Part shown: positions 24,673-47,862 of the stretch, piece after piece | Layout of the letters: each line of letters begins with the position of its first letter | How positions within the stretch are numbered: position 1 is the first letter of the stretch | NCBI GenBank assembly: GCA_016214655.1 | Contig: JACROC010000007.1 | Span: 80,785 to 128,646 of the forward strand | DNA: 47,862 bases | Reading direction: 5' to 3' | From: Candidatus Harrisonbacteria bacterium | GTDB taxonomy: Bacteria > Patescibacteriota > Minisyncoccia > UBA6257 > 02-FULL-45-10c | Notes under the pieces: generated by a model | Told to the model about the DNA's origin: nothing | Seen by the model: only the letters and a program-made list of their open reading frames with translations | Database searches by the model: none | Position numbers and translations under genes: made by a program

Positions 24673-25182
24673 TCAAAACAATTTCGTATCTAACCTCTTT
24701 TCTAATTGTAAAACAATATACAAGCCAAGTCCCGCCAAAATCACTGCGATTAAAAAGTTTATAAAGAAAAAATTGTTAGTAATTAAAAATTGGTAATTAG
24801 TGATTGGCTCACTAATAGCTAAAGTATTATTTAAAACCATATTGTCATCTGTCGTTTGGTTACCAGTCATTTGTGATTTATTGATAATTTGTCCCTCACT
24901 CGCCTGCCCGGAATAACTTAACTCGTCAACTAATTTTCCCGTATCATCATATAAAAAAATTTGCTCGCCATTATTATTTAAAGAAATTTTAGTCTCTGAA
25001 TATGGCAAAGTTAATGCCAAACCACTCTCTAAATTACCGCTTAAATTAAAAATCTTTCCGGAAGCATCTTTCAATTTCCAGCCATCTAATAAAACGCTGG
25101 TATTTCCATCATTTAGAATCTTTATATACTCGCCTTCTTTGTCGCTGCCGACCGGATTAGGCAGAAATTCCTTAATCTGCAT
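24673..25182 (-). CDS. Lamin-tail-domain (LTD) protein with C-terminal TM anchor
   Basis: 169 aa. The N-terminus IKEFLPNPVGSDKEGEYIKILNDGNTSVLLDGWKLKD is the LTD signature. C-terminal helix FFFINFLIAVILAGLGLYIVL. Confidence 0.75.
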   Translation of the reverse strand: MQIKEFLPNPVGSDKEGEYIKILNDGNTSVLLDGWKLKDASGKIFNLSGNLESGLALTLPYSETKISLNNNGEQIFLYDDTGKLVDELSYSGQASEGQIINKSQMTGNQTTDDNMVLNNTLAISEPITNYQFLITNNFFFINFLIAVILAGLGLYIVLQLEKRLDTKLF

Positions 25183-27299: not shown

Positions 27300-28973
27300 T
27301 TAAAAATTTATCGGTCCGGTTACTTTTTCGACCTCATCCAGAGTAGTCAAGCCTCCAATAACCTTCAAAACTCCGTCTTGCTGCATAGTAACCATTCCTT
27401 GTTTCATGGCATATTCTACGATTTCTAATTCTCCGCCGCCTTTGCTCATTAATTGTTCAATTTCTTTGGTAACCATTAATAACTCATAAATACCGACTCT
27501 TCCTTTATAACCAGCCGATCGGCATTTCTCGCAGCCTTTTGGTTCATAAACATCAATTTCTTTATAATCATTCCGGTCAACTCTTTCCGGTAGACTTTTT
27601 ATATATTTTTCAAATTTATTTTTTATTTCAGAATCTAATTTACTTTTAACCTTGCAATTTCCGCAGAGCCGCTTGACCAGCCGTTGGGCAATAATCAAAT
27701 TTAATGCCGGACCAATGCTGGTCGGTTTCACCCCCAGATCAACTAGACGCGGCAAAGCGCCGGCTGCTTGATTGGCGTGCACCGTCGAAAAAACCAAATG
27801 ACCAGTAAGAGCCGCCTGAATAGCTATTTCCGCGGTTTCTTTATCGCGGATTTCACCGATTAAAATCACATCTGGATCTTGGCGCATCAATGAGCGCAAA
27901 CCGTTGGCAAAAGTATAATTAGCTTCCGGATTAACCTGGGTCTGCTCAATTCCTATCACATGGTATTCGATTGGATCTTCAATGGTAATAATCTTTACTT
28001 CCGGAGAACTTTTATCCTTTAAAAAAGCGTATAACGTAGTGGTCTTGCCGGAACCAGTGGGGCCAGTATTCAAAATCAATCCATTTGGCTTTTTTAATTC
28101 TCCCTCAACTATTTCCAAATCGTCCTTACGGAGGCCCAAGTCCTGCATGCTTAAATTAATCGCATCCGGATCCAATACCCTCATTACGATAACTTCGCCG
28201 AATTCTGATGGCGCAATAGCTATGCGAAGTTCAATTTCTTTATTACCAAAACCGATTGTAAAACGGCCATCCTGAGCCTCATCGCGGACATTTAATTTTA
28301 AGTTGGAAAGTAATTTAATCCTGGAAACTAAGTGACCATAAATCGGCTTTAAAAGATCGTCCATAACATCGTGTAAATCTCCGTCTATCCGATAGCGCAA
28401 TTTTGCGCTTTTCTCCGCAGATTCAAAATGAATATCCGAGGCGCGACTTGCTAAGGCGCCGGCTAGGACTATTTCTAATATCTGCGCTGTCGGATATTTC
28501 CGAAAATCAAAAGCGTTGATCTCTTCTCTAACTTTTTTTAAAGTAGTTAATCTTTCTTTTAAACCTTCAATTCTCTCTTTATCAATATTAATTCTGCCAG
28601 TAATCGGAGCGGCCTTGGCAATAACATACCTATAAAACTCCCAGGCACGGTTAAGACTGGATAAAGAAACAACAAAGGTTTTTAGCTTCAATCCCCTTTT
28701 TTCTAAATCTTCGGTAATCTTTTTTACCAGACTAGCGGTTGGATCAAAAACGACAAGCACCACCCGGTCAGCTTTTTTTTCAATAGTAGCAACTTGAGCA
28801 GCCCTGGCTTCCTCTTCCGGAATGAGTTCTAAAGCATCAGTCTCTACTGGCTGGGTTGCCAAATTGATATAAGCAATTCCCGCTTCTTTTGCCCTCCTTT
28901 CCGCGTCTCTCTCCTCGGCCTCTTTCCGGCCTTTATCTAATATGCTCTTTATTCTTAAACCATCATCCGCCAT
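27300..28973 (-). CDS. pilB: GspE/PilB-family type II secretion / type IV pilus assembly ATPase
   Basis: 557 aa. Walker A GPTGSGKTT, Asp box ITIEDPIE, Walker B ILIGEIRD, His box TGHLVFSTVH, and a tetracysteine CGNC...CEKC motif. Confidence 0.9.
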   Translation of the reverse strand: MADDGLRIKSILDKGRKEAEERDAERRAKEAGIAYINLATQPVETDALELIPEEEARAAQVATIEKKADRVVLVVFDPTASLVKKITEDLEKRGLKLKTFVVSLSSLNRAWEFYRYVIAKAAPITGRINIDKERIEGLKERLTTLKKVREEINAFDFRKYPTAQILEIVLAGALASRASDIHFESAEKSAKLRYRIDGDLHDVMDDLLKPIYGHLVSRIKLLSNLKLNVRDEAQDGRFTIGFGNKEIELRIAIAPSEFGEVIVMRVLDPDAINLSMQDLGLRKDDLEIVEGELKKPNGLILNTGPTGSGKTTTLYAFLKDKSSPEVKIITIEDPIEYHVIGIEQTQVNPEANYTFANGLRSLMRQDPDVILIGEIRDKETAEIAIQAALTGHLVFSTVHANQAAGALPRLVDLGVKPTSIGPALNLIIAQRLVKRLCGNCKVKSKLDSEIKNKFEKYIKSLPERVDRNDYKEIDVYEPKGCEKCRSAGYKGRVGIYELLMVTKEIEQLMSKGGGELEIVEYAMKQGMVTMQQDGVLKVIGGLTTLDEVEKVTGPINF

Positions 28974-34657: not shown

Positions 34658-34809
34658 TGTGGATAGTGTGGATAAATAGAAAAACTACTCCTGTTTTTAA
34701 TTATTTCAAAAAGAATATTTTGTTATTAATTTAGTATTGGTTGTGGATGGATTTTGATAACAAAATATATTTTTGGAATTAATACATCTTTATTAACTTA
34801 TAATCCACA
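34658..34809. promoter_or_regulatory. DnaA-box cluster / candidate oriC segment in the dnaA-dnaN intergenic region
   Basis: Abutting boxes TGTGGATAG (34658-34666, 1 mismatch) and TGTGGATAA (34667-34675, perfect complement of TTATCCACA). Also TGTGGATGG (34742-34750, 2 mismatches) and TAATCCACA (34801-34809, 1 mismatch). AT-rich tracts lie between them. Confidence 0.6.
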
Positions 34810-34823
34810 GACTACCTGATAAT

Positions 34824-36179
34824 TTATTCTTTGTAGATGATGTCTTTGATAGCAATGACTTTTTGGTTTAAATCTTGATTTTTATTTATTTCACCGGAAA
34901 GCTTGCTATAGGCATAAATTGCCGTGGTGTGATCCCGTTTTCCTAATTTTAACCCGATATCCGGATAAGATAATCCTAAAATATCGCGAAGCAGGTACAT
35001 AGTTACTTGGCGGGGCTCTACTACGCTTTTTTGGCGGCAACGTCCGGTAAGATCGTTTGGGGAAATCTGAAAATAGTCAGCAACTGCCTTGATTACCTGA
35101 TTAGGATTGATATTTTTAGTTGGCTGCTGAATAGTCTCGTTGACTATTTCTTCTACGGCCCGGAGGGAAATGCCTGATTTTGCCTGTTGATAAAATATAA
35201 TGCGATTTAATACCCCCTCCAACTCCCGAAGATTCTTTTGGACTTTATTAGCGACAAATTCCACTATATTTTCAGGCAAATCAGCACCACGATCCTGAAT
35301 TTTGGTTCTTAGTATGGCCAAACGTAGTTCGTAGTCGGGGTACCCTATATCAGCAAGCATTCCGCCTTCAAAGCGGGAGCTCAAGCGTTCCTGCAGGGTT
35401 GGGATGAATTTAGGCGGGCGGTCCGAGGAAATAATAATTTGCTTGTTATTTTCGTATAATGCATTAAAAGTATGGAAAAATTCTTCTTCGGTAGAGGTTT
35501 TACCGCCGATAAATTGGATGTCATCGATAATAAGGACGTCAACGTTGCGGTATTTTTCTTTCATATCTTCCATCCTCTTATTTCTGATTCCGTAAATAAC
35601 ATCATTAGTAAATTTTTCAGAGGAAACATATTTTACCCGGACATTGTTGTCGTATTTCTTTTTAATCTCATTTCCGATTCCTTGGATAAGGTGGGTTTTG
35701 CCCAGCCCCACTCCGCCGTAAATGAAAAACGGATTATATTTTCTTCCAATTTCGTCAATAACCGCGCTGGCGGCGGCGAACGCCAATTCATTGGATTTGC
35801 CGACTACAAAAGAACTTAAGTTGTAACGGGGATTTAGATTGGTTTCCGGGTCGATTTTTAATTCTTCAAAAGCTAACTGGGATTTTGAAACGGTATTTGA
35901 GATTTTTTTCTTTAGATTATCAGCTGACCCCTGTTTATTGGTGACGGTGAACTCAATTTTCTTAGTAGATTCATCCAGATTCCTAAGTACGCTGAGAATT
36001 ACTTTATAATATTTATTTTCTACCCACTCTTTGGCAAAGTTATTCGGCAGGCTAACGAGCGCTATTCCGTCTTGCTTATCGATCAGGTGGCTGTTTTTCA
36101 GCCAGGTTACATAATTCGGTCTGGAAATTTGCAATTCTATTTCCGAAAGCGCGTTTTGCCAAAGTTGATCAAATTCCAT
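34824..36179 (-). CDS. dnaA: Chromosomal replication initiator protein DnaA
   Basis: 451 aa. Walker A GGVGLGKTHL, Walker B LIIDDIQF, sensor SSDRPP, and the C-terminal DNA-binding DHTTAIYA motif. Confidence 0.95.
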   Translation of the reverse strand: MEFDQLWQNALSEIELQISRPNYVTWLKNSHLIDKQDGIALVSLPNNFAKEWVENKYYKVILSVLRNLDESTKKIEFTVTNKQGSADNLKKKISNTVSKSQLAFEELKIDPETNLNPRYNLSSFVVGKSNELAFAAASAVIDEIGRKYNPFFIYGGVGLGKTHLIQGIGNEIKKKYDNNVRVKYVSSEKFTNDVIYGIRNKRMEDMKEKYRNVDVLIIDDIQFIGGKTSTEEEFFHTFNALYENNKQIIISSDRPPKFIPTLQERLSSRFEGGMLADIGYPDYELRLAILRTKIQDRGADLPENIVEFVANKVQKNLRELEGVLNRIIFYQQAKSGISLRAVEEIVNETIQQPTKNINPNQVIKAVADYFQISPNDLTGRCRQKSVVEPRQVTMYLLRDILGLSYPDIGLKLGKRDHTTAIYAYSKLSGEINKNQDLNQKVIAIKDIIYKE

Positions 36180-36559: not shown

Positions 36560-36694
36560 ATGTCTCAAACATATCAACCCAAAAAACGGAAAAGGGCAAG
36601 AACGCACGGATTTTTGGTCCGGAGCAGAACTCCTGGTGGGAGGCGGGTTTTAAGAGAAAGAAGGCGGAAAGGAAGGCACCGATTGTCGGTTTAA
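36560..36694 (+). CDS. rpmH: 50S ribosomal protein L34
   Basis: Below the ORF-track cut-off. Hand translation: [44 protein letters not shown] (44 aa). Canonical L34, in the canonical position upstream of rnpA. Confidence 0.95.
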
Positions 36695-36791: not shown

Positions 36792-36819
36792 TTTAGGATT
36801 TAGTGCTTAGTGATTAGAA
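36792..36819. repeat. Heptamer array TTTAGGA-TTTAGTG-CTTAGTG-ATTAGAA upstream of rnpA
   Basis: TTAG every 7 nt, four times. The 23-mer ATTGGAATTTGTTTAGGATTTAG (36781-36803) recurs with one mismatch at 44643-44665. Confidence 0.85.
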
Positions 36820-36830
36820 TTTTTTTAACT

Positions 36831-37166
36831 ATGCTCAAAAAGAAATACCGTCTTCCGATTCAAGCGATGCTTGGCAAGAAAGGCCAAACTCTCAAAACCT
36901 CTTTTTTATCGCTAAAAATTTTCCCCAGCAATCTTTCTTATTCCAGATTTGGAGCGGTGATCAGTAAAAAAGTTGCCGCTAAGGCTACGGCCAGAAATAA
37001 ATTACGCCGAATAATTTTTTCAGCCATTGAACCTTATTTCGGAGAAGAAAAAAAGTTCTTTATAGATAAAAGAGATTTTTTAGTTATTATTTATCCGGCA
37101 GTAAAAGATTTATCTAGAGAAGAAATAAAAATGCATTTGCGGGAGATTTTTGATAAGCTTAAATAA
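36831..37166 (+). CDS. rnpA: Ribonuclease P protein component
   Basis: ATG at 36831 (the track ORF starts at an upstream GTG inside the stop-rich repeat). MLKKKYRLP..., RNKLRRIIF (the RNR motif region). 111 aa. Confidence 0.85.
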   Translation: MLKKKYRLPIQAMLGKKGQTLKTSFLSLKIFPSNLSYSRFGAVISKKVAAKATARNKLRRIIFSAIEPYFGEEKKFFIDKRDFLVIIYPAVKDLSREEIKMHLREIFDKLK

Positions 37167-37167
37167 T

Positions 37168-37899
37168 ATGTTTCAAACATTTTTATACAACCCGTTATTT
37201 AACGCGTTGGTGTTTCTTTATAATACGGCCGCATTTCAAGACTTGGGATTAGCAATAATTTTCTTGACTATTGTTATCAGGATAATTTTTATGCCGCTCT
37301 TTTATCGGAGTACCAAGAATCAAATTTTGCTCCAGCGATTACAGCCGGAATTAGCAAAAATCCAGCATGACCATAAAGATGATCGAGAAAAGCAGGCACA
37401 GGCCATGATGGATCTTTATAAAAAGCATAACGTTAATCCATTCTCCGGGTTTTTATTGCTTCTTATTCAATTGCCGGTATTAATTGCATTATACAGGGTA
37501 TTTTTTGGAGGTTTTTCGCCGGAGCTGTTTGATCGTTTATACTCTTTCGTGCTTAGACCCGAAGCTTTAAATGCCACTCTTTTGGGCTTGATTGATTTGG
37601 CAAAACCGAGTATTCTTATGGTTAGTTTGGCTGCGGTTATGCAATATATCCAGGGACGCACAGCTCTTCTGAAAACCGATAAAAACAAGCCACTGTCTCA
37701 GCCGGAAAAAATGGCCAAGCAAATGATTTATTTTGGGCCGGTCATGACTGTTCTGGTTTTAAGTAATCTGCCTTCCGCCATTGGCCTTTATTGGCTGGTG
37801 ACCTCGGCTTTTTCAGTAGTGCAGCAGGTTTATATAAACAAAACTATCAATATCAAAGAAGAAAAAAAGGAACATGGAGCAATTAAAACAAACAATTGA
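37168..37899 (+). CDS. yidC: Membrane protein insertase YidC (short Oxa1-type)
   Basis: ATG at 37168, 1 nt after the rnpA stop. LAIIFLTIVIRIIFMPL, NPFSGFLLLLIQLPVLIALY and the GLYWLVTSAFSVVQQ signature. Confidence 0.9.
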   Translation: MFQTFLYNPLFNALVFLYNTAAFQDLGLAIIFLTIVIRIIFMPLFYRSTKNQILLQRLQPELAKIQHDHKDDREKQAQAMMDLYKKHNVNPFSGFLLLLIQLPVLIALYRVFFGGFSPELFDRLYSFVLRPEALNATLLGLIDLAKPSILMVSLAAVMQYIQGRTALLKTDKNKPLSQPEKMAKQMIYFGPVMTVLVLSNLPSAIGLYWLVTSAFSVVQQVYINKTINIKEEKKEHGAIKTNN

Positions 37900-38299
37900 A
37901 CAAATATTGGGAGCCAGCGGACTTAGTTTTTCCGTTGAAGTAGAGCCCGAGGCCAATCGGGTGAACATTTTTATTCACGATGAGGGTTTGACTAAGGAGT
38001 TTTTGCCCCGCTTGGTTGCGGATTTAGAACACGTTATTAAGATCGCCGCTAAAAAACTTGGCATTGAGAAGGTGGGTGTAGATGTGAATAATTATAAAAG
38101 AGAGCGGGAGCGGCTGATTGGCGAACTTGCAAAGGCGGCGGCAAGGAAAGTTTTAGCCGAGAAAAAAGAAATTGAACTCCCAGCCATGAATGCTTATGAG
38201 CGGAGGATTGTTCACGTGGAACTGGCAACCCGCCCCGATGTGAAAACGGAGAGCGTCGGCGAAGGAACAGACCGTCACATTATCGTCAGGCCACTATAG
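37874..38299 (+). CDS. jag: Jag/KhpB-like R3H-domain RNA-binding protein
   Basis: 141 aa. KH-like region plus R3H motif (MNAYERRIVHVELA). Canonical position after yidC. Confidence 0.8.
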   Translation: MEQLKQTIEQILGASGLSFSVEVEPEANRVNIFIHDEGLTKEFLPRLVADLEHVIKIAAKKLGIEKVGVDVNNYKRERERLIGELAKAAARKVLAEKKEIELPAMNAYERRIVHVELATRPDVKTESVGEGTDRHIIVRPL

Positions 38300-38302
38300 C
38301 GC

Positions 38303-38338
38303 GATACTAATATACGAATGCATACTAATGATACAAAT
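38303..38338. repeat. Left arm of the imperfect inverted repeat bracketing the GxxExxY gene
   Basis: GATACTAATATACGAATGCATACTAATGATACAAAT matches the reverse complement of 38719-38754 at 30 of 36 positions (hand alignment). It contains the gene's ATG. Confidence 0.8.
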
Positions 38339-38716
38339 GGGAAATTAATTTATCCCGAGTTGTCTTATTTTTTATCTGGTATCTGTTTTGATGTTCATAA
38401 TGAGTTGGGGAGATATGGCCGCGAAAAACAATATGGGGATTTGATTGAAAAGAAATTGCAAAATATAAATCTTCCTTATAAAAGAGAATTTAGTATAGGA
38501 AAAACTGGCAATGTAGTTGATTTTGTTATAGAGGATAAAATTATTTTAGAATTAAAAACTAAACCCTTGATAGTTAAAGAAGATTATTATCAAACACAAA
38601 GATACTTGCAATCTTCTAAAATAAGGCTCGCTTTGCTAATAAATTTCAGAAATAGATATTTAAAGCCTACTAGAGTTGTAAGAATAGATACCGATGTGAG
38701 GAATAAATTTTTCTAA
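38318..38716 (+). CDS. GxxExxY-family protein (PD-(D/E)XK nuclease-like fold)
   Basis: 132 aa. [22 protein letters not shown] is a typical family N-terminus, and [15 protein letters not shown] is a D...E-x-K-type motif. Confidence 0.75.
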
Positions 38717-38718
38717 TT

Positions 38719-38754
38719 ATTAGTATAATTAGTATTGATTAGTATATTGGTATC
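38719..38754. repeat. Right arm of the inverted repeat bracketing the GxxExxY gene
   Basis: ATTAGTATAATTAGTATTGATTAGTATATTGGTATC. See the left arm at 38303-38338. Confidence 0.8.
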
Positions 38755-38767
38755 GATTCTAGTCTAC

Positions 38768-39862
38768 TTATTCTAACCGCAGGCCATAGAGTTTTCCATC
38801 TAGACGGTTTTTGAATAGGAGGCTGTCTTGGTGTAACTCTAAATGTTCGGCGTCAAAAATTATTTCCGATCCAATTTCCAATTTGATAGTTTGTCTGGAT
38901 TCCAAGTCAATTAAATAAAGCGCGTCATCAAAATAAACTGCTTTTTTGTAATAATCATCCGGCCAGCGAACTTCCGGATTAATATTTTTTGGTACGGCGC
39001 AGTAGATTTTTAATTTATCAATTAAACACTTGGACGGGAGGGTCAGGAAGCTGAAAGTCTCCTGTGTAGCTCCGTCTTTATTTATGAGACTTAGGTACAC
39101 CTTCCCTTCTTTGTTGAAAAGCTTTATTCCTAAATCACTGTTTTTGAACCATCTGAGGGTTAAGCCGTTTTCATCTTGGATTAAAGGCGCAAGATTTTTT
39201 TGAGTAAGATTAAGCAACCAAAGTGAGGAATTTAACTCAAAAGTCGGCGGAGTTGAGAGCAGTGCCGTAGTGGAAGAAACCCAGGCAATTTCCACCTCTT
39301 TTTGAGAGAGATCTAAAATTTTATCAAATTTTTGTTTTATTATGTTAAAAATATTAAGCGATTTGTCATCGGCAAATAATAGTTCCGGAGAATTGGGCGA
39401 CCAGGCGGCAGAAATTGTACCGGCTGGCAGCGGCTGCCAGTTGGTCGATGTCGTATCAAAGATTGCAAAGATCGGCGAGTTCGGGAAATTAAATTTTGCC
39501 AGACCAAAAGATCCGTCATTACTCGCTTCAACTCTATTTAACTTGGTTAGGGTTCTAGAATTAACCAGTTCTTCAGAGTTATCGGAAAATCGTATTACTT
39601 GGCCGAATTCGTTCAGGTAATAAACAGCGTTATTTTGAGAATTGATCCAATAATCAAAAATAGGGGCCTGAGTTATTGAATAAAACTTGGGTTTTGCTGA
39701 TTGACCTTCGGGGACGGTCCGCTCCGGAACCGGTTTGCCAGAGGGAAAAATTCCGCTTACCAATTTTTGAACTGCGGGGGTTTTGTAAAAAAATGAATAG
39801 ATCAGCCAAACAACAGCAGCTATTATAATAAGGACCGCTAAAATTTTAAGATATTTTTTCAT
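38768..39862 (-). CDS. TM-anchored hypothetical protein, beta-propeller-like ectodomain (last gene of the T4SS-like cluster)
   Basis: The internal ATG at 39862 gives MKKYLKILAVLIIIAAVVWLIYSFF (signal anchor) and removes the overlap with the upstream gene. The rest is beta-rich with TolB/WD-like repeats (AAWSPNSPELLFADD). Confidence 0.55.
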   Translation of the reverse strand: MKKYLKILAVLIIIAAVVWLIYSFFYKTPAVQKLVSGIFPSGKPVPERTVPEGQSAKPKFYSITQAPIFDYWINSQNNAVYYLNEFGQVIRFSDNSEELVNSRTLTKLNRVEASNDGSFGLAKFNFPNSPIFAIFDTTSTNWQPLPAGTISAAWSPNSPELLFADDKSLNIFNIIKQKFDKILDLSQKEVEIAWVSSTTALLSTPPTFELNSSLWLLNLTQKNLAPLIQDENGLTLRWFKNSDLGIKLFNKEGKVYLSLINKDGATQETFSFLTLPSKCLIDKLKIYCAVPKNINPEVRWPDDYYKKAVYFDDALYLIDLESRQTIKLEIGSEIIFDAEHLELHQDSLLFKNRLDGKLYGLRLE

Positions 39863-39864
39863 AA

Positions 39865-40725
39865 CTATTTTTTTATTACCGGTTGGCAGCCGCCCAGCAC
39901 CGCATCTTCTTGCCCAGGCGGGCAGATGCAGTTGCCATCTTTTAATGTTTTTGGAAGGGGACAATTAGTTTCTTTGGGTTTATTTGTGGGCGGTGTGGTT
40001 ACTGCCGGGGGAGGAACATTTTGTAGAGTTATAAATAACTCCGGATTATTTGCTCCGGGATTTATTATATTGAGGAATCCGGGATCAATAGTGTATAAAA
40101 TTGTTGCGGCGCCTAGAAGCAGGATTAATCCATAAATTGCGCTTCTGATTTGTTCTTTAGCTTCGTCGATACTGGTAAAACTGCCGGCTGCCAGTATATA
40201 TTGTAGAGCGCCAAAGGTTATGGACCCAAAAGCAAGTAGTCCGACGATCATTAATCCGAATTGATATATACGGACTATATATCTGCCCGGCGTAGCTCCT
40301 TCTCCGCCGGCGATCTTTGGACAATCCCCCCCAAATATCGGCGAGCAGGGAATGTCATATTTTACCTCGTATGTTTTAACTCCTTCTTTTATGTCACCAA
40401 GAGTTCCGAATATACCCAAACCATTTACCACGTCTTCATAGGCTTTTGCTGAGGCCTCATAAGCATCCCCGACTCTTTTGGCATTTTTGAAAACCTCTTC
40501 ATATTCTCTGGTTCCTTTTTTAATGCATTTTTCAATACGCGTAACAGTACCCGCCTCTTCTTTAACTGCCGGTTCAAATTTAAATAATATGGAATCCTCC
40601 TCGCATTTTCCATTGATCGGGCTTACTATGTTTGCGGCAAAACTTATTAAAAAGGAATTTAGTAAGATAAGGATGGATGATAAAATTGCCCAGCTCATTT
40701 TATTTTTTAACTTATTACTATACAT
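39865..40725 (-). CDS. T4SS pilin-like (VirB2/TrbC-analogous, CPR-type) protein with large N-terminal extension and Cys-rich tail
   Basis: 286 aa. Signal peptide and a Cys pair (DIPCSPIFGGDC). Then two hydrophobic helices separated by an AKEQIRSAIYG linker (IYQFGLMIVGLLAFGSITFGALQYILAAG / LILLLGAATILYTIDP). C-terminal Pro/Thr spacer and a 4-Cys knot. Confidence 0.55.
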   Translation of the reverse strand: MYSNKLKNKMSWAILSSILILLNSFLISFAANIVSPINGKCEEDSILFKFEPAVKEEAGTVTRIEKCIKKGTREYEEVFKNAKRVGDAYEASAKAYEDVVNGLGIFGTLGDIKEGVKTYEVKYDIPCSPIFGGDCPKIAGGEGATPGRYIVRIYQFGLMIVGLLAFGSITFGALQYILAAGSFTSIDEAKEQIRSAIYGLILLLGAATILYTIDPGFLNIINPGANNPELFITLQNVPPPAVTTPPTNKPKETNCPLPKTLKDGNCICPPGQEDAVLGGCQPVIKK

Positions 40726-40727
40726 AA

Positions 40728-41429
40728 TTAAAACGTGGTCACAAAATAAGCCCTTTTTATTGCCGACTCAAACTCGTTAAAAAAATTTTTTATTGTTACT
40801 GATAAAACAATATCTCCATTGCCAGACGGAACCTGCGAGCCCAAATCTAAGTTTAGCGACTCTGGATTATCGGCGGAAGCGGAAATTCGTTCCCCGTTTA
40901 TTTTCCAATCAAAAGATAATTCACTGGAATTAGCTGCGTTAAAAAAATAAGGGAGAGCGGTAAGGGTATGCTTCCCGAATTTAATTTTTTTGTTTAATAA
41001 TTTGCTTTCAATCATTATTTCCGGACGAAGGGATGGGATTATTACGCTACTCGTTAGATTTTGCTCCTTGTAATCTAAGACGGTTATCCGTACGGCTTGT
41101 TCTTGGCTGCCACTATTAAAACGGGCAGTTTTTAATCCTATTCCGGAAGTCAAAAACTTCCCGTTTAATTCCCAGCTAATCTCGCTTTTGGATAAGTTAA
41201 TTACTTTACCATTATCAATTACGTCAAACCCGACTTCTACCGGGGTATTATTGGTGGGAAAAATTTTTCCTTGGTAGCCAGCTGGCACATAGCTTAGGGC
41301 TTTCCAGGAAATCAAAAGCTGCGGCGTGGTTTGGGCAAAAGCATTATCAATAATTAGTAAATAGTAAATAGTAACTAGGAACAGTATTTTAATAATCGCA
41401 TTTATATTTTTATAATTTATAATTACCAT
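40728..41429 (-). CDS. Secreted hypothetical protein with two tandem beta-sandwich-like repeats
   Basis: 233 aa. Signal peptide ending AFA-Q. Internal duplication (SEISWELNGKFL... versus SELSFDWKINGERI...). Confidence 0.5.
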   Translation of the reverse strand: MVIINYKNINAIIKILFLVTIYYLLIIDNAFAQTTPQLLISWKALSYVPAGYQGKIFPTNNTPVEVGFDVIDNGKVINLSKSEISWELNGKFLTSGIGLKTARFNSGSQEQAVRITVLDYKEQNLTSSVIIPSLRPEIMIESKLLNKKIKFGKHTLTALPYFFNAANSSELSFDWKINGERISASADNPESLNLDLGSQVPSGNGDIVLSVTIKNFFNEFESAIKRAYFVTTF

Positions 41430-41440
41430 TTTCTAATTTA

Positions 41441-41782
41441 TTATTTAACGGCTGGTTTGGGGCCAGTTCCGGCACTGGTTTTTTGAACCGCCGCAGTTGC
41501 AATTTCTTGAAGCCCGCTGCGGTCTACGATAACGGTAGCTATCCAGCCGATGGTGAACATCGGCAGTATTCCGATCGGAGTTGCCTCAAAAACTTTAGCG
41601 ATCAAGTCGGGTATCAAACTAACTCCCTTCATTCTGAGATAAAAGGTGCTTAACGAGCTGATTATGACTAATATAAAACCAAATCCTACAGCTGCTAAAC
41701 CCACACTAATGACATCAAATAGGATAAAAACCAATCCTACATAAACTATTTCACTGGTGGAAATTTTTGGTTCGTGTTTCAT
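41441..41782 (-). CDS. Small 3-TM membrane protein
   Basis: 113 aa. Hydrophobic helices VYVGLVFILFDVISVGLAAVGFGFILVII and GILPMFTIGWIATVIV. Located directly downstream of VirB4. Confidence 0.5.
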   Translation of the reverse strand: MKHEPKISTSEIVYVGLVFILFDVISVGLAAVGFGFILVIISSLSTFYLRMKGVSLIPDLIAKVFEATPIGILPMFTIGWIATVIVDRSGLQEIATAAVQKTSAGTGPKPAVK

Positions 41783-41807
41783 ATATCAATTATAATATAA
41801 TATGATA

Positions 41808-43520
41808 TTACCCTTTTTGCTGTTCTAGAATTTGTTCCGGCCGAGTAGTTACGATTTTATCTTCCAAATATGAGGCAATGATTTGAATGGACACGTGATT
41901 TAATCCTGCAAAGAACAATCCTTGGCCTACCCTTGCCTCCAAGAGCAAGCTTTTTTCGCCCTCGGTCAAATTGAAGGTCTTGGCAACTAAGTCCACCATT
42001 GCCGGAGATTGTTTTAAAAGCAGCTGAAGCGAGGAATTGGTGATAATTGGCCGGCCGTAAGGAGAGCGGAGGAAATCTTCCACGTCTTGGGTAATGGTAG
42101 TGACGCCAAGATAATACTTTCTGCATCTTTTAACCAGGCCGAATAAGAAAGACGCGCCGTCTTCGTACTTCATTAACACCCAAGCCTCATCAATGATTAA
42201 AACCCTTCTTTTAAGCTGTGCTCTGATTAAGCTCCAAATGAAGTTTAGCACTATATACATGGCAATCGGCCGAAGTGAGTCCTCTAAGTCTCGGATAGAA
42301 AAGACAATCAGTCGATTTTTGATGTCTACGTTGGATGGTTGGTTGGTGAATCCGGCGTAGCTGCCTTGGGTAAATTTATAAAGCCGTTCGGCTATGCCGC
42401 GTCCGCCTTCCATATTTTCCAGAACTTTTTGCAGTTCTTCCAAGAGTGGCGGAGTGGCTGTGGAGAAATCTTTTCCGGGAATGATATCATGGGCGGCATA
42501 AGTCTCACTCAGGGCTCGGTCCAGAACAGCATCTTCTTCCGGAGTAATCTGACCAACCATGATTTTTAAAAGTCCGGATAAATTTACTATGTGCGATCTA
42601 AGTACATCGGCCGGGTCTTCATTTGGAGGTATAATGGGAATTTCAAAAGGATTGATGTGGTGGTCTGAAGTCAGAGAAATTTTGAAAAAACTTCCCCCAA
42701 CCGCCGAAGCCAGATTTTGATATTCATTTTCCGGGTCAATGATTAAGACATCAACCCCGAACATTAAAAGCCTTAAAATTTCCAGTTTGCTGGCATAAGA
42801 TTTTCCGCTGCCGGATTTGGCAAAAATTACCATGTTGGCATTTTCCAAAGAGAAGCGGTCAAAAATGACGAGGGTGTTGTTGTGCTGGTTGACCCCGTAC
42901 ATTATGCCGGTATTAGAGGTCAGTTCAGTTGAGGTGAATGGGAAGATTGAGGAAAATGGCCCGGAGTTTAGCGGTGTGTGAATAAGCAACCTATCTAAAC
43001 CGAGCGGCAAAGTTGAATTGAACCCGTCTAATTGCTGGAATAATGCCGGTTTTATATAGATGAGCCGGCTTTCCAGCAAAACTTCGATTTTTCCTTCCAA
43101 TTTACGTAATTCTTCCAGGGTATCAGCGTAAATAGTCATATAAACACTGACATTGAATAAATTTTCTCTTGCTTGCTGGAGTGAGTCCCGGAGTGATTCG
43201 ATATCCTGAAAGGCAGTTTCTAGAATCGGGTCGCGCACCATTCCCTTTTGCTGTTTTTCAATTATCTGAGATTCTATCTGAGCAGCTTTTTTTCTTAGTT
43301 TTTTAAGCGCGACGGGAGTAGCCACGGGGTGGGCAAAAATTGAAATATCTATGAGTTCCGGCATATCAATTATTCCGGAAAACCAGCCGGTAGCAAGATA
43401 TCTTGGATAGCTAAAAATAAATAAAGTTTTGGTGAACTTATCTCCGACTTTCAGATAATTGGAATCAATCTCAATTCCCGGCGGGGCAATTATGTTTACT
43501 ATATTTTTTTTGTCATCCAT
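41808..43520 (-). CDS. virB4: VirB4/TraC/TrbE-family T4SS ATPase (middle and C-terminal ATPase portion)
   Basis: 570 aa. YPRYLATGWFSGIIDMPELIDISIF (VirB4 N-terminal-region pattern), Walker A FAKSGSGKSY, Walker B VLIIDEAW, and GVTTITQD. Confidence 0.85.
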   Translation of the reverse strand: MDDKKNIVNIIAPPGIEIDSNYLKVGDKFTKTLFIFSYPRYLATGWFSGIIDMPELIDISIFAHPVATPVALKKLRKKAAQIESQIIEKQQKGMVRDPILETAFQDIESLRDSLQQARENLFNVSVYMTIYADTLEELRKLEGKIEVLLESRLIYIKPALFQQLDGFNSTLPLGLDRLLIHTPLNSGPFSSIFPFTSTELTSNTGIMYGVNQHNNTLVIFDRFSLENANMVIFAKSGSGKSYASKLEILRLLMFGVDVLIIDPENEYQNLASAVGGSFFKISLTSDHHINPFEIPIIPPNEDPADVLRSHIVNLSGLLKIMVGQITPEEDAVLDRALSETYAAHDIIPGKDFSTATPPLLEELQKVLENMEGGRGIAERLYKFTQGSYAGFTNQPSNVDIKNRLIVFSIRDLEDSLRPIAMYIVLNFIWSLIRAQLKRRVLIIDEAWVLMKYEDGASFLFGLVKRCRKYYLGVTTITQDVEDFLRSPYGRPIITNSSLQLLLKQSPAMVDLVAKTFNLTEGEKSLLLEARVGQGLFFAGLNHVSIQIIASYLEDKIVTTRPEQILEQQKG

Positions 43521-43542
43521 GTTTATTTCAATTATTAATCCT

Positions 43543-44208
43543 TTATTTATTAACTTGCGTTTCCAAGTCTACTTTTTTGGCTACGGTGGACGGATTATAT
43601 AGATTATAGAAAAGCTCTATTAATTCGTCATTTTCCAGGGAAACGGCGCGGAGACCGATTTGATTTAAGCCATCTATAATTTGTGATACACGCGCATTTA
43701 ATTGCTGCAGGCTCTCTTCAAATTTCTCATCTTTTTTTTCCTGGGCGGTTTTTTTGGATTTTCCCCAACTAAATAGAGCATCGGCGATATTTAATCCGGC
43801 ACCTGGAACTGCGATCGGGTCGTACGGGACAACCACGAAAAATCTTTTTTGCATAATGGCATTTTCTCTTACCACCGTTTTGACAAATTCCCGGTATTCA
43901 AGAATTTGATTTTTTAAAAGGCTGTTTTCTTCCTGAATTTCGCGCTCTTCGAGAGTTTTAATATAATCATCAATATTAAGCTTTCTGGAATGGATAAAGA
44001 ATTGAACGGTAAAATCCAGAGAATTCAAGAATCCCTGGAAAGCCTGAGTAATCATTTCTTGCTCTTCCGTGGATTTTAGAGAGAAATTGGTTCCGGAAAC
44101 CAGAATAATTTTTCTTAGACCCCCGCCCTTCAATTTGATTGTATCGTTTTCTACGGATTCAATTTCTATAAACTGTTGTGTGGGTAAAGACCCTTCTCTA
44201 TTCGGCAT
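43543..44208 (-). CDS. VirB4 N-terminal-domain-like protein (separate ORF)
   Basis: 221 aa. FIEIESVENDTIKLKGGGLRKIILVSGTNFSLKSTEEQEMITQAFQGFLNSLDFTVQFFIHSRKLNID resembles the extreme N-terminus of Gram-positive VirB4 homologues (Tn916 Orf16/TcpF type). 221+570 aa is about the size of a full-length VirB4. Confidence 0.5.
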   Translation of the reverse strand: MPNREGSLPTQQFIEIESVENDTIKLKGGGLRKIILVSGTNFSLKSTEEQEMITQAFQGFLNSLDFTVQFFIHSRKLNIDDYIKTLEEREIQEENSLLKNQILEYREFVKTVVRENAIMQKRFFVVVPYDPIAVPGAGLNIADALFSWGKSKKTAQEKKDEKFEESLQQLNARVSQIIDGLNQIGLRAVSLENDELIELFYNLYNPSTVAKKVDLETQVNK

Positions 44209-44220
44209 ATACTTTATTAT

Positions 44221-44254
44221 AAACCCTAAATTCTAATATCTAAACTCTAAACAA
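44221..44254. repeat. Left arm (CTAA heptamer array) of the inverted repeat bracketing the four-helix-bundle gene
   Basis: AAACCCTAAATTCTAATATCTAAACTCTAAACAA has CTAA at 44226, 44233, 44240 and 44247. It matches the reverse complement of 44651-44684 at 29 of 34 positions. Confidence 0.85.
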
Positions 44255-44284
44255 TTATAAAATTCCAATTATCAAATTTAGAAA

Positions 44285-44644
44285 CTATTTTGACCCTTCT
44301 ACTATCGACCCGAAAATTTTCGTAAGCTCTCCAGATTCTTTGATTAAATATTCTCTTTCTGATTCAGATTCCGTTTTGGGGGCGCTAAGTTTTAACCACA
44401 AGCAGCTCTCTTTCGATTCTTTTCGGCATATTTTTATTCTTATAACGAAATCTTTTTTACTAAGCGCCTCGTTAGCTTCTATATAATTAGCGGCAACCGA
44501 ACCCGAGGACCGAACTAATTGTTTTCCGTTCTCTATGTTGGTAATTATTTTAGGTAAACTATTGACGTACCCATTTACCCTTTTCGCGAAATTAAAAGTT
44601 CTTTCTTCTAGATCATATTTTTTTGTATTTGGAGATTGGTCCAT
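44285..44644 (-). CDS. Four-helix-bundle protein (TIGR02436 / 23S rRNA intervening-sequence protein family)
   Basis: 119 aa. FNFAKRVNGYVNSLPK...QLVRSSGSVAANYIEANEA.SKKDF..KI.ICRKESKES..WL is the typical family pattern. Confidence 0.8.
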   Translation of the reverse strand: MDQSPNTKKYDLEERTFNFAKRVNGYVNSLPKIITNIENGKQLVRSSGSVAANYIEANEALSKKDFVIRIKICRKESKESCLWLKLSAPKTESESEREYLIKESGELTKIFGSIVEGSK

Positions 44645-44650
44645 TGGAGT

Positions 44651-44684
44651 TTGTTTAGGATTTAGAAATTAGGATTTAGAGTTT
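44651..44684. repeat. Right arm (TTAG heptamer array) of the inverted repeat bracketing the four-helix-bundle gene
   Basis: TTGTTTAGGATTTAGAAATTAGGATTTAGAGTTT has TTAG at 44655, 44662, 44669 and 44676. Confidence 0.85.
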
Positions 44685-45196
44685 TAACGGTAATCTACTC
44701 TCCGGGCCACTTCTCTTTCCCCGGTTATTTTTCTCATCATTTCAAAGCGTTCCTTGCTGCTTACGGCCCTGTCCAGGATGGCTGGTTCTATGGACTTTTC
44801 TCTTTTAGGAAGCGGTTTGCGGCTGGTTTTAAGCTGTTCCCATAGATCATTCAATCTAGACTTGGCGGGAGAAATTCCGGATTCCGGCAATTTGATTTGC
44901 GGAATTTTTTCAGATGCAATCTTACTCTGCCAGAGATAAAAATGCGGCTTAAGGTAAAAATTAAGAGCTGAAAAAGCAATGGTGGTAAATGATTGGCCGT
45001 TAATTTTAATAAATGCAAAAGAGGCGGCAATTATTCCCAGGAAAAGAGTGATAATCAGCCAAAGTATAAATTGCAAAAAGAAAAATAAAGCGAAACTTAT
45101 GCCTCCGGCCACGGCCAGAAATAAAAATTGCTTGATGGTCAGCGGACCAACAATTTTGTCTTCGGTTTCTATAAATTGTGGAACTTGAAAATTCAT
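44684..45196 (-). CDS. PrgI-family (VirB3-like) membrane protein
   Basis: 170 aa. The N-terminus VPQFIETEDKIVGPLTIKQFLFLAVAGGISFALFFF followed by a second TM helix is the PrgI-family pattern. Confidence 0.7.
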   Translation of the reverse strand: MNFQVPQFIETEDKIVGPLTIKQFLFLAVAGGISFALFFFLQFILWLIITLFLGIIAASFAFIKINGQSFTTIAFSALNFYLKPHFYLWQSKIASEKIPQIKLPESGISPAKSRLNDLWEQLKTSRKPLPKREKSIEPAILDRAVSSKERFEMMRKITGEREVARRVDYR

Positions 45197-45211
45197 ACGC
45201 TTACGCTTATC

Positions 45212-45288
45212 CGATACGAAACTACAAATTGATGCGAATCTACAAATGATTTATTCGTTGATTCGGATGTATTCGTAGTTTTGGATCG
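45212..45288. repeat. Long imperfect hairpin (cargo-less inverted repeat) between the PrgI-like and proline-rich genes
   Basis: Hand pairing of 45212-45249 with 45251-45288 gives 29 Watson-Crick plus 2 G-U pairs out of 38 positions. ATACGAA/TTCGTAT-type units are as in the GxxExxY flanks. Confidence 0.7.
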
Positions 45289-45292
45289 CTGT

Positions 45293-46228
45293 TTATTTTT
45301 TACGTAAATCTACAATGCCCCCATCTGGCTTCGGTTCGGTTTTAAACATTTTTCTAAGATCCACGGTGTTGGTTTCTTCTGGCTTAGGCGTCCCAGCGGC
45401 CGTGAGTGGTGTATTCGGGCCGCTGTAGTTAACAATTTTTGTATGGGTAGCCCCCAATCTTTCTTGCTCCCTGGATGATTCAAGTTCTTTTTTAGCTGGA
45501 AGGGGCGGCAGAGTTGATTTTGCTGGTGCCGGTTTTTCTTCTAAGGGCGTCCGCAGGTTGCTATAGTGAACCACCCTGGGTGGAGCTTCAAGTTTAATTA
45601 CGGCTGGTCTTGGCGGTGTTGGCGTTGTTGGCTGGGTTGGCGTCAATTCAATGTGGGCTGCCATTTTTGGTTTGGAAATTTCCTGCGGGGTAGGATAAGA
45701 CGCTGTTTCCTGGTGAAGCATAAACGGGGACGGGCCTTTTATTTCAAAAGATTGCAAATCAATTTTCGGTTCCGCTGGTTTGAGTGGGGCTGGCGGCGCT
45801 GGTTTTGGCGGTAATGGCGGTTGGGGTATTTTTGTAACCGGAATTACAGTCCTCCGAATAAGAGGAATTTCTGGCGCTTCTTCCGGCAATTCAATCGGAT
45901 TATAGATTTTTCCTAGTTCATTTTTGATCGCGGAAAAAACTTTCTGATTTAGTTCATTAGTAATTTTATCTGCAATATCAAGCCGGATATCAAAAAAAGC
46001 GTTTAATTCTTGGGCCATTTCTTCTGGTAGTAGATAACCCAAAAGCACCTCGCCTACAATTTGGGCAACGGCAGAAACTTTTTCTTCGCCTAAACCATAA
46101 TTGTGGCCGAGGATCTCAATAAGTTCCGAGGTTTTTGAAGATGTCAATTCTTTTCTGATTACTTCCGGTAATGACTCAAATCGGTTTTTAATATCTTCTG
46201 TCGCTTTTGAATATTTTTGTTCCGGCAT
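45293..46228 (-). CDS. Hypothetical protein: helical N-domain plus proline-rich repetitive C-terminal half
   Basis: 311 aa. PQPPLPPKPAPPAPLKPAEP tract. Duplicated motifs VVHYSNLRTPL/IVNYSGPNTPL and TVDLRKMFK/IVDLRKK. No TM segment. Confidence 0.5.
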   Translation of the reverse strand: MPEQKYSKATEDIKNRFESLPEVIRKELTSSKTSELIEILGHNYGLGEEKVSAVAQIVGEVLLGYLLPEEMAQELNAFFDIRLDIADKITNELNQKVFSAIKNELGKIYNPIELPEEAPEIPLIRRTVIPVTKIPQPPLPPKPAPPAPLKPAEPKIDLQSFEIKGPSPFMLHQETASYPTPQEISKPKMAAHIELTPTQPTTPTPPRPAVIKLEAPPRVVHYSNLRTPLEEKPAPAKSTLPPLPAKKELESSREQERLGATHTKIVNYSGPNTPLTAAGTPKPEETNTVDLRKMFKTEPKPDGGIVDLRKK

Positions 46229-46253
46229 TTTATTGTTGATTTTTATGGATCAT

Positions 46254-47862
46254 TTATGTAGTTGGCGGCGGTGTGAGATTAATTCCCGAGACTGGGGTGG
46301 TCGATGAAGTTGGTCCCGTAGGTGGGGAAGCTTGTGGCTGCATTTGCGCTATTCTTTCTGCGGCTTCAGTTGCTTCTTTGGCGGCATCTATTGCGGTTTT
46401 TGTTGTGCCTTTTTGAGACGCTAATTTTTCTGCTATATTTGCAGCTGCCTTAGCTGCTTTAGCCGCCTGTTGTATACCCGCCAAATCTCCTTTTGATTTT
46501 GCCAAGTTCGCTTTAGTTTCTTCCGCCACCGCCGCTGTCTTTGCTGTATTTACCGAATTTTCTATATCTGCCGCCGACTCCATGGATTTCATTTTAGATT
46601 TATAAGATTCCCTCGCAGATTTAATTGATTCGGTGGTTTCAGTCATAGCTTTGCGGGATTGTTTCTGTGAAACACCCCCAGTTTTTATTTCTTTAGCAAT
46701 TCGATCTGCTTCGAATTTCGCATCTTCGGCTTCTTGAAGTTTTTTATCGGCCCCGACAAAGTCTCCTGTTTTTATTAGTCGTTCTGCGTCAGCAGTTGCT
46801 GCTGTGGCAATAGTGGTATGACCCATCACCTGACCAGCCCTGCTTTGATCAGCCCTTCTTTGTTTCCGCAAGCTTTTAGCTTCTTCTTTGTCTTTCTCTC
46901 TTTCTTCAAACCACCTAGTTGAGACACCCATTCCGGCGACTGTTCCTTTAACTACGGAGTTCATTAAATCTGGCGGTTTGGCGGCTGCTCCCCTAGCTAA
47001 AACCGCGGCCCCGGCTATTCCCCTAAGTGGCGCAGCTGCTTGTTTTGCGAGCCAGCCGGTAACGCCCTTGCCACCAATTCCAGCTTGAGAAAGTGCATTA
47101 ACTGCCTGTCTTCCAAGCCCAGTCCTAAGCGGTGACGTAAGGGCTTGTCCAGTCTTGCCGCCTAACCATTTAACTGATCCCGTGGCGAATCCGGTAGCGG
47201 TGGCGGTTGCTACTTTAGCAAAACCAACCCCGGTTTTTTCTGAAGCAATCAGTCCCCCGAAAAGGATCCCGATAACCGCTATCATTTGGCCGATGGTTTC
47301 TCCTAGATTTGGCATTAATATGCCGGTTGCAGCTAGCGACTCTTTTTGAAGGGCGTACTGGCTGGCGGTACCTGGCGGGGCAACTATGCTTAAAGATAAA
47401 TAGATAAAAAATGCGGAGGCGGGCGCAAACCAAACCCATTTTAAGAAATTATCCCACCATTCTTGCCAAAATTTTTCTAAATCTGGCCAGATCCACATCA
47501 GCCAGGCAATTGGCATTAAAATAAGCAAAATAGTCAGGGCAATATATCTTATAAGAAGCATTATTGCCAGCCCCAGCATGGCAATGGTGGCAATAACCGT
47601 GAAGATGGCTATAAAAATTAGCGATGCCACAAATGGCATAATAAATAGGCCGGTCATTCCTTTCAATTTTTCTTGAATTGCGTTTGGATCTTCGGTTACT
47701 TGTAAAAAGGTTTGAACCCGGAAGGCATTGGCGAAATTTTTGCCCACTTCATGCAAACTTCCTCCAGTTGCTTTAGCTAAAAAGAAATCAGTTAAAACTC
47801 CGGAAAAATCAACAAAAACTCCGGCAATCACTAAGCTAAAGTTTATTAACAGAGCCGCAATA
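46254..47862 (-). CDS. VirB6/TrbL-like polytopic membrane protein with long Ala/Lys-rich coiled-coil tail; 5' end beyond the window
   Basis: The frame stays open upstream of the track's GTG to the window edge (…IAALLINFSLVIAGV…). There are 5-6 TM helices (e.g. LFIMPFVASLIFIAIFTVIATIAMLGLAIMLLIRYIALTILLILMPIAWLMWIW), then about 280 aa of low-complexity helical sequence and a Pro/Thr tail. Confidence 0.55.
   Translation of the reverse strand, partial: IAALLINFSLVIAGVFVDFSGVLTDFFLAKATGGSLHEVGKNFANAFRVQTFLQVTEDPNAIQEKLKGMTGLFIMPFVASLIFIAIFTVIATIAMLGLAIMLLIRYIALTILLILMPIAWLMWIWPDLEKFWQEWWDNFLKWVWFAPASAFFIYLSLSIVAPPGTASQYALQKESLAATGILMPNLGETIGQMIAVIGILFGGLIASEKTGVGFAKVATATATGFATGSVKWLGGKTGQALTSPLRTGLGRQAVNALSQAGIGGKGVTGWLAKQAAAPLRGIAGAAVLARGAAAKPPDLMNSVVKGTVAGMGVSTRWFEEREKDKEEAKSLRKQRRADQSRAGQVMGHTTIATAATADAERLIKTGDFVGADKKLQEAEDAKFEADRIAKEIKTGGVSQKQSRKAMTETTESIKSARESYKSKMKSMESAADIENSVNTAKTAAVAEETKANLAKSKGDLAGIQQAAKAAKAAANIAEKLASQKGTTKTAIDAAKEATEAAERIAQMQPQASPPTGPTSSTTPVSGINLTPPPTT

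Follow-up and report, generated by a model that had tools for sequence, protein, structure and literature searches.

The window examined here is the whole 47,862-nucleotide (nt) stretch of contig JACROC010000007.1 from a Candidatus Harrisonbacteria bacterium, whose right-hand end (38768-47862) carries the recognisable parts of a type IV secretion system (T4SS) near dnaA. Ten open reading frames (ORFs), all co-directional on the minus strand, occupy this region up to the window end. As a preliminary description made from the letters alone had reported, they are closely packed: in transcription order, the gaps between them measure 25, 96, 39, 76, 22, 25, 11, 2 and 2 nt. The last value assumes that the final gene, encoding a β-propeller protein, starts at ATG 39862, a choice backed by the MKK… consensus of 40 orthologues. 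Promoter and terminator scans gave counts not above those of shuffled controls and were uninformative for operon structure. For comparison, 84 related loci picked by VirB4 similarity were assembled (GTDB genomes contributed 80 species of these, with 56-85% identity in VirB4). Iterative hidden Markov models were built for every T4SS gene on the ORFs of these 84 loci, and the window proteins were scanned against Pfam and NCBIfam profiles. The ten genes are as follows, with the evidence for each assignment.

46254-47862, minus strand: putative VirB6/TrbL-like polytopic membrane protein, 5'-truncated (sub-threshold TrbL matches, topology, position)
45293-46228, minus strand: proline-rich protein (composition, synteny)
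44684-45196, minus strand: PrgI/VirB3-like membrane protein (PF12666)
44221-44684, minus strand: four-helix-bundle (23S-rRNA-IVS-protein family) cassette, with its ORF at 44285-44644 (TIGR02436, PF05635)
43543-44208, minus strand: TrsD-like, free-standing VirB4 N-terminal domain (sub-cut-off profile matches, fusions in homologues)
41808-43520, minus strand: VirB4-type ATPase (NF045971 CD1110 family, Walker A GSGKS, Walker B LIIDEAW)
41441-41782, minus strand: small membrane protein, called 3-TM below (family alignment, hydropathy)
40728-41429, minus strand: exported tandem Ig-like (β-sandwich) protein, 233 amino acids (structure model, Foldseek)
39865-40725, minus strand: extended VirB2-type pilin-domain protein, 286 amino acids (PF18895)
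38768-39862, minus strand: membrane-anchored TolB-like β-propeller protein (family profile against PDB)

The VirB6-like ORF is stop-free in frame up to base 47862 and is ~125 N-terminal residues shorter than its orthologues, which shows that the window edge truncates the locus. Judging from the sequences of relatives, this is a conserved Paceibacteria locus of at least 11 core genes, of which two fall outside the window, as does the 5' end of VirB6. The system is therefore not 'minimal', as it was first described.

Recognisable secretion components

The VirB4 ATPase matches the NF045971 CD1110 family with an E-value of 6e-111 (372 bits against an NCBI curated cut-off of 325) and P-loop_TraG with an E-value of 1.6e-25. 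More than 8000 homologues were found at E <1e-50, the best 120 of these being 72-94% identical. Among the matches listed, those bearing organism names, at 73-94% identity, belong almost all to Patescibacteria, including Harrisonbacteria, Wolfebacteria, Zambryskibacteria and Paceibacterota, and the rest are unclassified metagenome-assembled genomes. The top plasmid-borne relatives are CD1110-family proteins of Firmicutes and Actinobacteria with 32-35% identity. Judged by this similarity gap rather than by a tree, the window VirB4 appears to group with the VirB4 proteins of Patescibacteria.

The neighbouring TrsD-like protein corresponds to the N-terminal domain of VirB4. It is matched by VirB4_plasma (E 3e-11), VirB4_CagE (E 5.7e-7) and TrsD (E 1.5e-6), all under the curated cut-offs, and a PF26593 TraC-like match is on record for its orthologues. 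Homologues of ~780-795 amino acids carry this domain and VirB4 in one fused protein, in agreement with the first reading of this ORF. An origin of the split by frameshift or pseudogene formation was considered and rejected, since the pair of 221 and 570 amino acids recurs in most relatives, beside fused forms of ~790 amino acids. Comparison of these sequences indicates that the TrsD/VirB4 split is an evolved state.

The PrgI/VirB3-like protein is recognised by PF12666 (E 1.3e-10, 42 bits against a cut-off of 27), exhibits two transmembrane-like segments by hydropathy and is found in 73 of the 84 loci. The pilin-domain protein carries a PF18895 two-helix hairpin at residues 153-212 (28.9 bits, cut-off 26.6), together with a signal peptide, a Cys-containing N-terminal domain of ~115 amino acids and a Pro/Cys-rich tail. 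PF18895 is matched by 42 of 43 pilin orthologues, with a best E-value of 8.6e-13. The identification of VirB4, PrgI and the pilin in the preliminary description was thus borne out by matches above the cut-offs. The gene in the pilin position is hypervariable in length and sequence (for example in our loci L052, L053, L056, L057, L069, L079 and L084), with products of 123-484 amino acids in most relatives and giant forms of 820-2075 amino acids in some Zambryskibacteria-like genomes. A cell-wall peptidase domain (Peptidase_M15_4) is fused to the VirB2-type hairpin in 2 of the 43 orthologues.

The VirB6 assignment is weaker. By hydropathy, the protein has at least four hydrophobic segments followed by a hydrophilic Ala/Lys/Glu/Thr-rich tail of ~280 amino acids, which the preliminary description had called a coiled coil, and both this topology and its position fit a VirB6/TrbL channel, as had been proposed. 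Profile matches stay under threshold: TrbL_4 is found at E 0.003-0.004, and TrbL is matched by 5 of 31 orthologues (627-847 amino acids) at E 2.4e-4 or worse. A TrbL_3 match is precomputed for the orthologues of two related loci (L003 and L004). The family profile gave nothing meaningful against PDB. The sequence of 46254-47862 thus points weakly to VirB6.

Partner proteins and inserted cassettes

The preliminary description counted at least five partners that belong to no nameable family. For two of them, the propeller and the Ig-like protein, a fold can now be given, while the proline-rich and 3-TM proteins do remain without a family.

The last gene encodes the β-propeller protein. Its longest ORF starts at TTG 39964, the likely start being ATG 39862. 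Single sequences gave weak propeller matches only, whereas the family profile matched TolB chains of PDB with E-values between 3.6e-9 and 3.5e-7. It has one N-terminal transmembrane segment, as first described, is found in 56 of the 84 loci and is always the last gene. The likeness to TolB of the Tol-Pal system lies in the propeller match itself (E 3.6e-9); the window protein differs in being anchored by a single N-terminal transmembrane helix in a monoderm organism and in giving no match to the N-terminal domain of TolB. Moreover, no Tol-Pal genes occur near the window propeller gene. From its sequence, the protein is best regarded as a fold-level relative of TolB and not as a Tol-Pal component.

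The Ig-like protein was modelled with AlphaFold2. A single-sequence search gave three homologues, and a locus-derived alignment of 73 sequences was used for modelling, which resulted in a predicted local distance difference test score (pLDDT) of 84.9 and a predicted template modelling score of 0.70. In the model, an N-terminal helix (signal or anchor) precedes two β-sandwich (Ig-like) domains, in line with the secreted tandem β-sandwich protein recognised in the first reading. Foldseek retrieved Ig, FN3 and BIg arrays, the best being the SiiE adhesin 2yn3 (E 6.6e-6), with TM-scores of only ~0.3. The model is consistent with a generic tandem Ig-like exported protein at 40728-41429, which is present in 66 of the 84 loci.

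The 3-TM protein, whose family comes from 63 of the 84 loci, always directly follows VirB4. It has two to three transmembrane segments, with hydrophobic stretches at ~12-50 and 65-87, and conserved motifs (KIS..E, D, KGV and E.IP…LP..T). It gave no match in Pfam or NCBIfam. The proline-rich protein (14% Pro) has no transmembrane segment and comprises a helical N-terminal domain of ~110 amino acids and a Pro-rich region that is probably disordered; a single-sequence AlphaFold2 model was poor (pLDDT 47), with helices only at residues 5-109. An orthologue lies between VirB6 and PrgI in 69 of the 84 loci.

Two more conserved genes are found upstream of VirB6 in 45-46 of the 84 loci, beyond the equivalent of window base 47862 (~3.6-5.9 kb in L001 and L003). 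The first encodes in relatives a protein of ~255 amino acids with an N-terminal transmembrane helix. The second encodes an exported protein of ~500 amino acids that ends in a coiled coil and in which certain Cys, Trp and Gly residues are invariant. These two proteins, like the proline-rich family, have no match in Pfam or NCBIfam, and searches of the three families against PDB yielded nothing, or coiled-coil noise (coronavirus spike heptad repeats). One of the two upstream proteins may be the analogue of the absent VirB8. The six unnamed genes (proline-rich, 3-TM, tandem Ig-like, TolB-like propeller and the two upstream exported proteins) are as syntenic in Paceibacteria as the named T4SS genes, so that by sequence comparison they are core to the locus.

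The remaining ORF of the series is of another nature. It belongs to the four-helix-bundle family (TIGR02436, E 8e-16; PF05635, E 3.8e-10) and is bordered by inverted-repeat arms at 44221-44254 and 44651-44684 (34 nt, 85% complementary). The cassette is missing from the closest syntenic relatives and occurs in 17 other loci at varying intergenic positions, which identifies it as a genuine insertion, as the preliminary description had supposed. A second cassette lies by the 3' end of the operon on the opposite strand and carries a PD-(D/E)XK protein:

38302-38755, plus strand: PDDEXK_3 cassette, with its ORF at 38318-38716 (PF13366, E 5.6e-18)

Its inverted-repeat arms (37 nt) lie at 38302-38338 and 38719-38755. 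It is sporadic among relatives and is at times located within the T4SS operon. Neither cassette is part of the secretion machine.

In both cases, imperfect inverted repeats of 34-37 nt composed of short units (TTAGGATTTAGA; ACTAAT) sit at the ORF borders. Scored over 18 four-helix-bundle cassettes, the flanking inverted repeats reach a median of 15.75, against 7-8 for control genes; cassettes with such repeats occur in L008, L016, L026, L027, L048, L072 and others. The predicted RNA of the four-helix-bundle cassette forms a terminal stem of ~38 bp closing around the ORF. From its sequence, this architecture resembles a 23S rRNA intervening sequence whose loop holds the ORF, here placed in a protein-coding operon, and the cassette may be a small element that is mobile or processed by RNase III.

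Chromosomal context

Beyond the second cassette, the locus adjoins an origin-proximal block of housekeeping genes:

37874-38299, plus strand: jag
37150-37899, plus strand: yidC
36810-37166, plus strand: rnpA
36560-36694, plus strand: rpmH (44 amino acids)
34824-36179, minus strand: dnaA
34623-38299: the whole origin-proximal housekeeping block, including the dnaA-dnaN spacer

The 200-bp spacer between dnaA and dnaN contains a cluster of three DnaA-box matches (34658-34809), one of which is perfect (TTATCCACA). Window-wide, 25 matches with at most one mismatch are found, against 11.7 expected by chance.

The organisation in relatives is as follows. The upstream part includes a LysM-M23 peptidase gene on the opposite strand, the UvrD/PcrA-type helicase gene uvrD, ksgA and the genes of the ~255- and ~500-amino-acid exported proteins. 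The operon then has the order VirB6–Pro-rich–PrgI–TrsD–VirB4–3-TM–Ig-like–pilin–propeller, and after the propeller come the convergent jag-yidC-rnpA genes followed by dnaA-dnaN and a penicillin-binding protein (PBP) gene. Gene order and the position beside the origin are invariant across ~80 Paceibacteria species, with VirB4 identity down to 56%. Such a fixed order and position indicate a chromosomal feature and not an island, as was already suggested by the housekeeping neighbours, and the GC content of the T4SS locus is like that of its surroundings.

Genes for DNA processing were searched for in several ways. Pfam and NCBIfam identified no VirD4, VirB11, relaxase or recombinase/integrase among the T4SS ORFs and 30 other window ORFs, in accordance with the preliminary description. 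The region beyond base 47862 was inspected in relatives: no relaxase, VirD4 or integrase occurs among the called genes of their upstream 10 kb, as an integrated conjugative element (ICE) would have. A phmmer search with a Firmicutes CD1115 VirD4 query gave nothing at E <=10 in the ORFs of the 84 loci and the window. Similarly, no cell-wall hydrolase is encoded within the window operon, the LysM-M23 peptidase gene of relatives lying divergently upstream, and no NTF2-like (VirB8-like) protein was identified among the operon proteins. Pfam and NCBIfam scans recognised no CedA-like or ComB-type components.

An operon that is long and apparently essential usually runs in the direction of replication. 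The T4SS operon is transcribed toward dnaA/oriC (~34.6-36.8 kb), head-on to the outgoing replication fork, and this orientation is conserved in all related loci with both flanks (for example L001, L003 and L013) and in the epibiont Ca. Southlakia epibionticum (SEML1_0004-0013, minus strand).

The rest of the window carries housekeeping genes: a ClpB-like ATPase, MurB, a Mur ligase, RuvA/B/C, UvrB, Fpg, a histidine kinase, a split PolA, TsaE, a PilB-type ATPase, YebC, a class A PBP, DnaN and DnaA. The PilB/GspE-type ATPase, a type IV pilus motor (27300-28973, minus strand; T2SSE, E 1.8e-118), lies ~10 kb from the T4SS locus. DNA polymerase I is apparently split into a DNA_pol_A-only protein (19388-20842, minus strand) and a 5'-3' exonuclease (21686-22576, minus strand), between which an M23 peptidase gene (20937-21677) lies on the opposite strand. 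Three further domain matches are not what is usually met in reduced bacterial genomes: one to the NMD3 family (7562-8086, minus strand; E 3.7e-7), a lamin-tail-domain protein (24673-25182, minus strand; E 3.3e-13) and a SLOG LDcluster4 protein (10015-10611, minus strand; E 2.5e-37).

Function and relation to known systems

We consider it likely (probability about 0.8) that the locus is a resident, vertically inherited T4SS of the Patescibacteria clade, derived from monoderm machinery of the mating-pair formation type FATA (MPF-FATA) and used for non-conjugative exchange with a host. This reading builds on the identities of VirB4, TrsD, PrgI and the pilin, on two partner folds, on synteny and position and on the lack of DNA-processing genes nearby; the assembly, the existence of a pilus, the substrate and the direction of transport are inferred, with the roles of homologous components in characterised T4SSs as a guide. 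The VirB4 ATPase and its separate TrsD N-domain would dock on PrgI/VirB3 and VirB6 to form an inner-membrane translocon. VirB4 would then pull the VirB2-type pilin-domain subunits out of the membrane, giving a pilus or conduit across the cell wall. The Ig-like, propeller and 3-TM proteins and the two upstream exported proteins could form a lineage-specific extracytoplasmic scaffold, which would substitute for the VirB8, VirB1 and adhesin modules of Gram-positive systems. The machine would serve contact-dependent host exchange, either exporting proteins to the host or taking up its macromolecules. Of the roles listed in the preliminary description, classical conjugation is the least likely and is unlikely in itself, given that the locus has neither relaxase nor coupling protein.

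Conservation points in the same direction. In all 44 loci that hold both genes, VirB4 is better conserved than DnaA (median identity to the window proteins 66% against 59%), and it is also better conserved than DnaN, YidC and PBP in these 44 related loci, although the choice of loci by VirB4 similarity may inflate its apparent conservation. Such a difference argues for strong selection on a cellular function and, despite this caveat, agrees with an essential cellular role.

Apart from this sampling effect, several points weigh against the favoured reading. The VirB6 call depends on sub-threshold TrbL_4 matches, and an hhalign comparison of the VirB6 family with the Firmicutes CD1112 VirB6 was negative (with a single-sequence template, a weak test). 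The 'pilin', at 286 amino acids and with large extra domains, may not form polymers as VirB2 does. A type IV coupling protein or a relaxase could be encoded elsewhere in the genome; VirD4 homologues are reported in 2,918 Patescibacteria genomes, 148 of 5,713 lying near virB4 (PMC12102498). The experimental evidence for the role of the T4SS comes from S. epibionticum, a member of the Saccharibacteria and not of the Paceibacteria. Finally, the roles proposed above for the five scaffold partners are guesses from fold and topology.

A dedicated import device, comparable with archaeal Ced or Helicobacter ComB and drawing in DNA or other macromolecules of the host or the surroundings as a source of nucleotides, is possible, though we regard it as less likely than not. 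Patescibacteria are without nucleotide biosynthesis, and the import hypothesis is favoured by Quiñonero-Coronel et al. 2025 (PMC12102498). By transposon sequencing (Tn-seq), Wang et al. 2023 (PMC10633639) found that epibiotic growth of the Saccharibacteria member S. epibionticum requires the T4SS with its pilins, but not comEC. The window VirB4 also gives weak partial matches to the CedB and CedD models, but at 37 bits (cut-off 700) and 24 bits (cut-off 600), respectively, these are far under the cut-offs and cover the generic P-loop region only. They are not accompanied by recognisable CedA-like or ComB-type components, and import and export cannot be told apart from sequence. A more speculative version, which we rate as improbable, is that the Paceibacteria T4SS swapped its VirB8, VirB1 and adhesin parts for a strictly conserved extracytoplasmic module of its own (TolB-like propeller, tandem Ig-like protein, extended VirB2-hairpin, 3-TM and the two upstream exported proteins) and works in reverse, as a feeding tube importing host macromolecules. 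If true, this would explain both a constraint on VirB4 exceeding that on DnaA and the retention of the operon at the origin despite head-on transcription.

It is rather unlikely that the locus makes an adhesive surface filament only, for host attachment and with no substrate translocation. The missing coupling protein and the exported Ig-like protein would fit such a filament, and the hypervariability of the pilin-position gene, including its giant and peptidase-bearing forms, is the pattern expected of a host-contact protein. However, adhesion in Patescibacteria already implicates type IV pili (PMC12206443), for which the window encodes a PilB-type ATPase, and the extreme conservation of VirB4 and the kept VirB6/VirB3 translocon parts exceed what adhesion needs. 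An ICE or its conjugation module, with relaxase, coupling protein and integrase just past the window, is very improbable and was rejected for reasons of synteny and gene content. In its favour, the window VirB4 scores above the threshold of a model that takes its name from conjugative elements (CD1110 family), and the window ends inside the locus. Against it, the upstream 10 kb of relatives hold the two exported proteins, ksgA, uvrD and the LysM-M23 peptidase gene and no relaxase, VirD4 or integrase gene, the VirD4 query matched no ORF, and the oriC-side position and gene order are alike in ~80 species with no GC shift.

The resident T4SS favoured here is of a kind already published, including its missing relaxase and its dnaA-side position, and the window locus is a typical member; the preliminary view of an uncharacterised system does not hold (PMC12102498; PMC10633639). 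The T4SS of this group, which nearly all of these ultra-small bacteria have on the chromosome close to the origin, had been described in papers from 2020 to 2025, among them McLean 2020, and a role as conduit or in uptake has been proposed (PMC12857230). Our additions are modest: two partner folds, six unnamed core genes and the recognition that the locus runs past the window edge. In the Patescibacteria, a T4SS was for the first time shown to be needed for survival by the very bacterium that carries it, and this system may be the conduit by which ultra-small epibionts live off their hosts.

Among known systems, the Gram-positive-type affinity that had been noted early is reflected in MPF-FATA elements of the Firmicutes CD1110/CD1112/CD1115 type, whose VirB4 belongs to the same NCBIfam family with 32-35% identity. 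The module of C. botulinum pCDC3875 reads VirD4 – x – VirB6 – PrgI – x – VirB4 – x – SLT hydrolase and has in common with the window the local order VirB6 – PrgI – x – VirB4 – small protein. By contrast, pCDC3875 has VirD4, an SLT transglycosylase and a MOBP relaxase (MOB-suite plasmid typing), all three of which the window locus is without. Its VirB4 is fused and full-length and it has no VirB2 pilin, whereas the window has a split VirB4 and an added pilin, Ig-like protein and propeller. When aligned by hhalign with their positional equivalents in pCDC3875, none of four families (VirB6, 3-TM, Ig-like and Pro-rich) showed similarity (single-sequence templates, a weak test).

The cluster of Ca. 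Southlakia epibionticum ML1 (SEML1_0004/0006-0019, PMC10633639) likewise lies beside dnaA-dnaN and is transcribed toward them. The common order is VirB6 … PrgI – TrsD-like – VirB4 … exported Ig-like protein. As in the window, the pilins belong to PF18895 and the cluster contains no relaxase or coupling protein, both of which were noted as lacking (PMC10633639). In addition, virB4 is followed there by lysozyme/peptidase (VirB1-like) genes, and the cluster also encodes an NTF2-like (VirB8-like) protein, another large VirB6-like protein and six short pilins in an array. The window has instead a single extended pilin, the TolB-like propeller and the 3-TM and Pro-rich proteins, with no hydrolase in the operon. 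The probable analogue of the window Ig-like protein is SEML1_0005, which is exported and essential and whose Ig-like (E-set) first domain is joined by a second β domain.

The closest correspondence is with the Paceibacteria T4SS of Quiñonero-Coronel et al. 2025 (PMC12102498), who described a monophyletic Patescibacteria VirB4 clade nested in MPF-FATA (2,407 of 3,035 assemblies). There, TrsD, PrgI/VirB3, VirB6 and VirB2-like pilins adjoin virB4, a relaxase is almost never found, and the Paceibacteria systems lie near dnaA, dnaN, rnpA, rpmH and ksgA. The window likewise has VirB4, a separate TrsD-like protein, PrgI/VirB3 and a VirB2-like pilin, and its weakly matched ORF at 46254-47862 fits VirB6 by topology and position. 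The locus is also without a nearby relaxase or coupling protein and lies near dnaA, dnaN, rnpA and rpmH, ksgA being seen in relatives. There is no essential difference between the two, and the present analysis adds six syntenic genes, two of them with fold assignments. The window thus provides a clean Paceibacteria example, in which the two fold-assigned partners and the other fixed genes are concrete targets for dissecting the machine.

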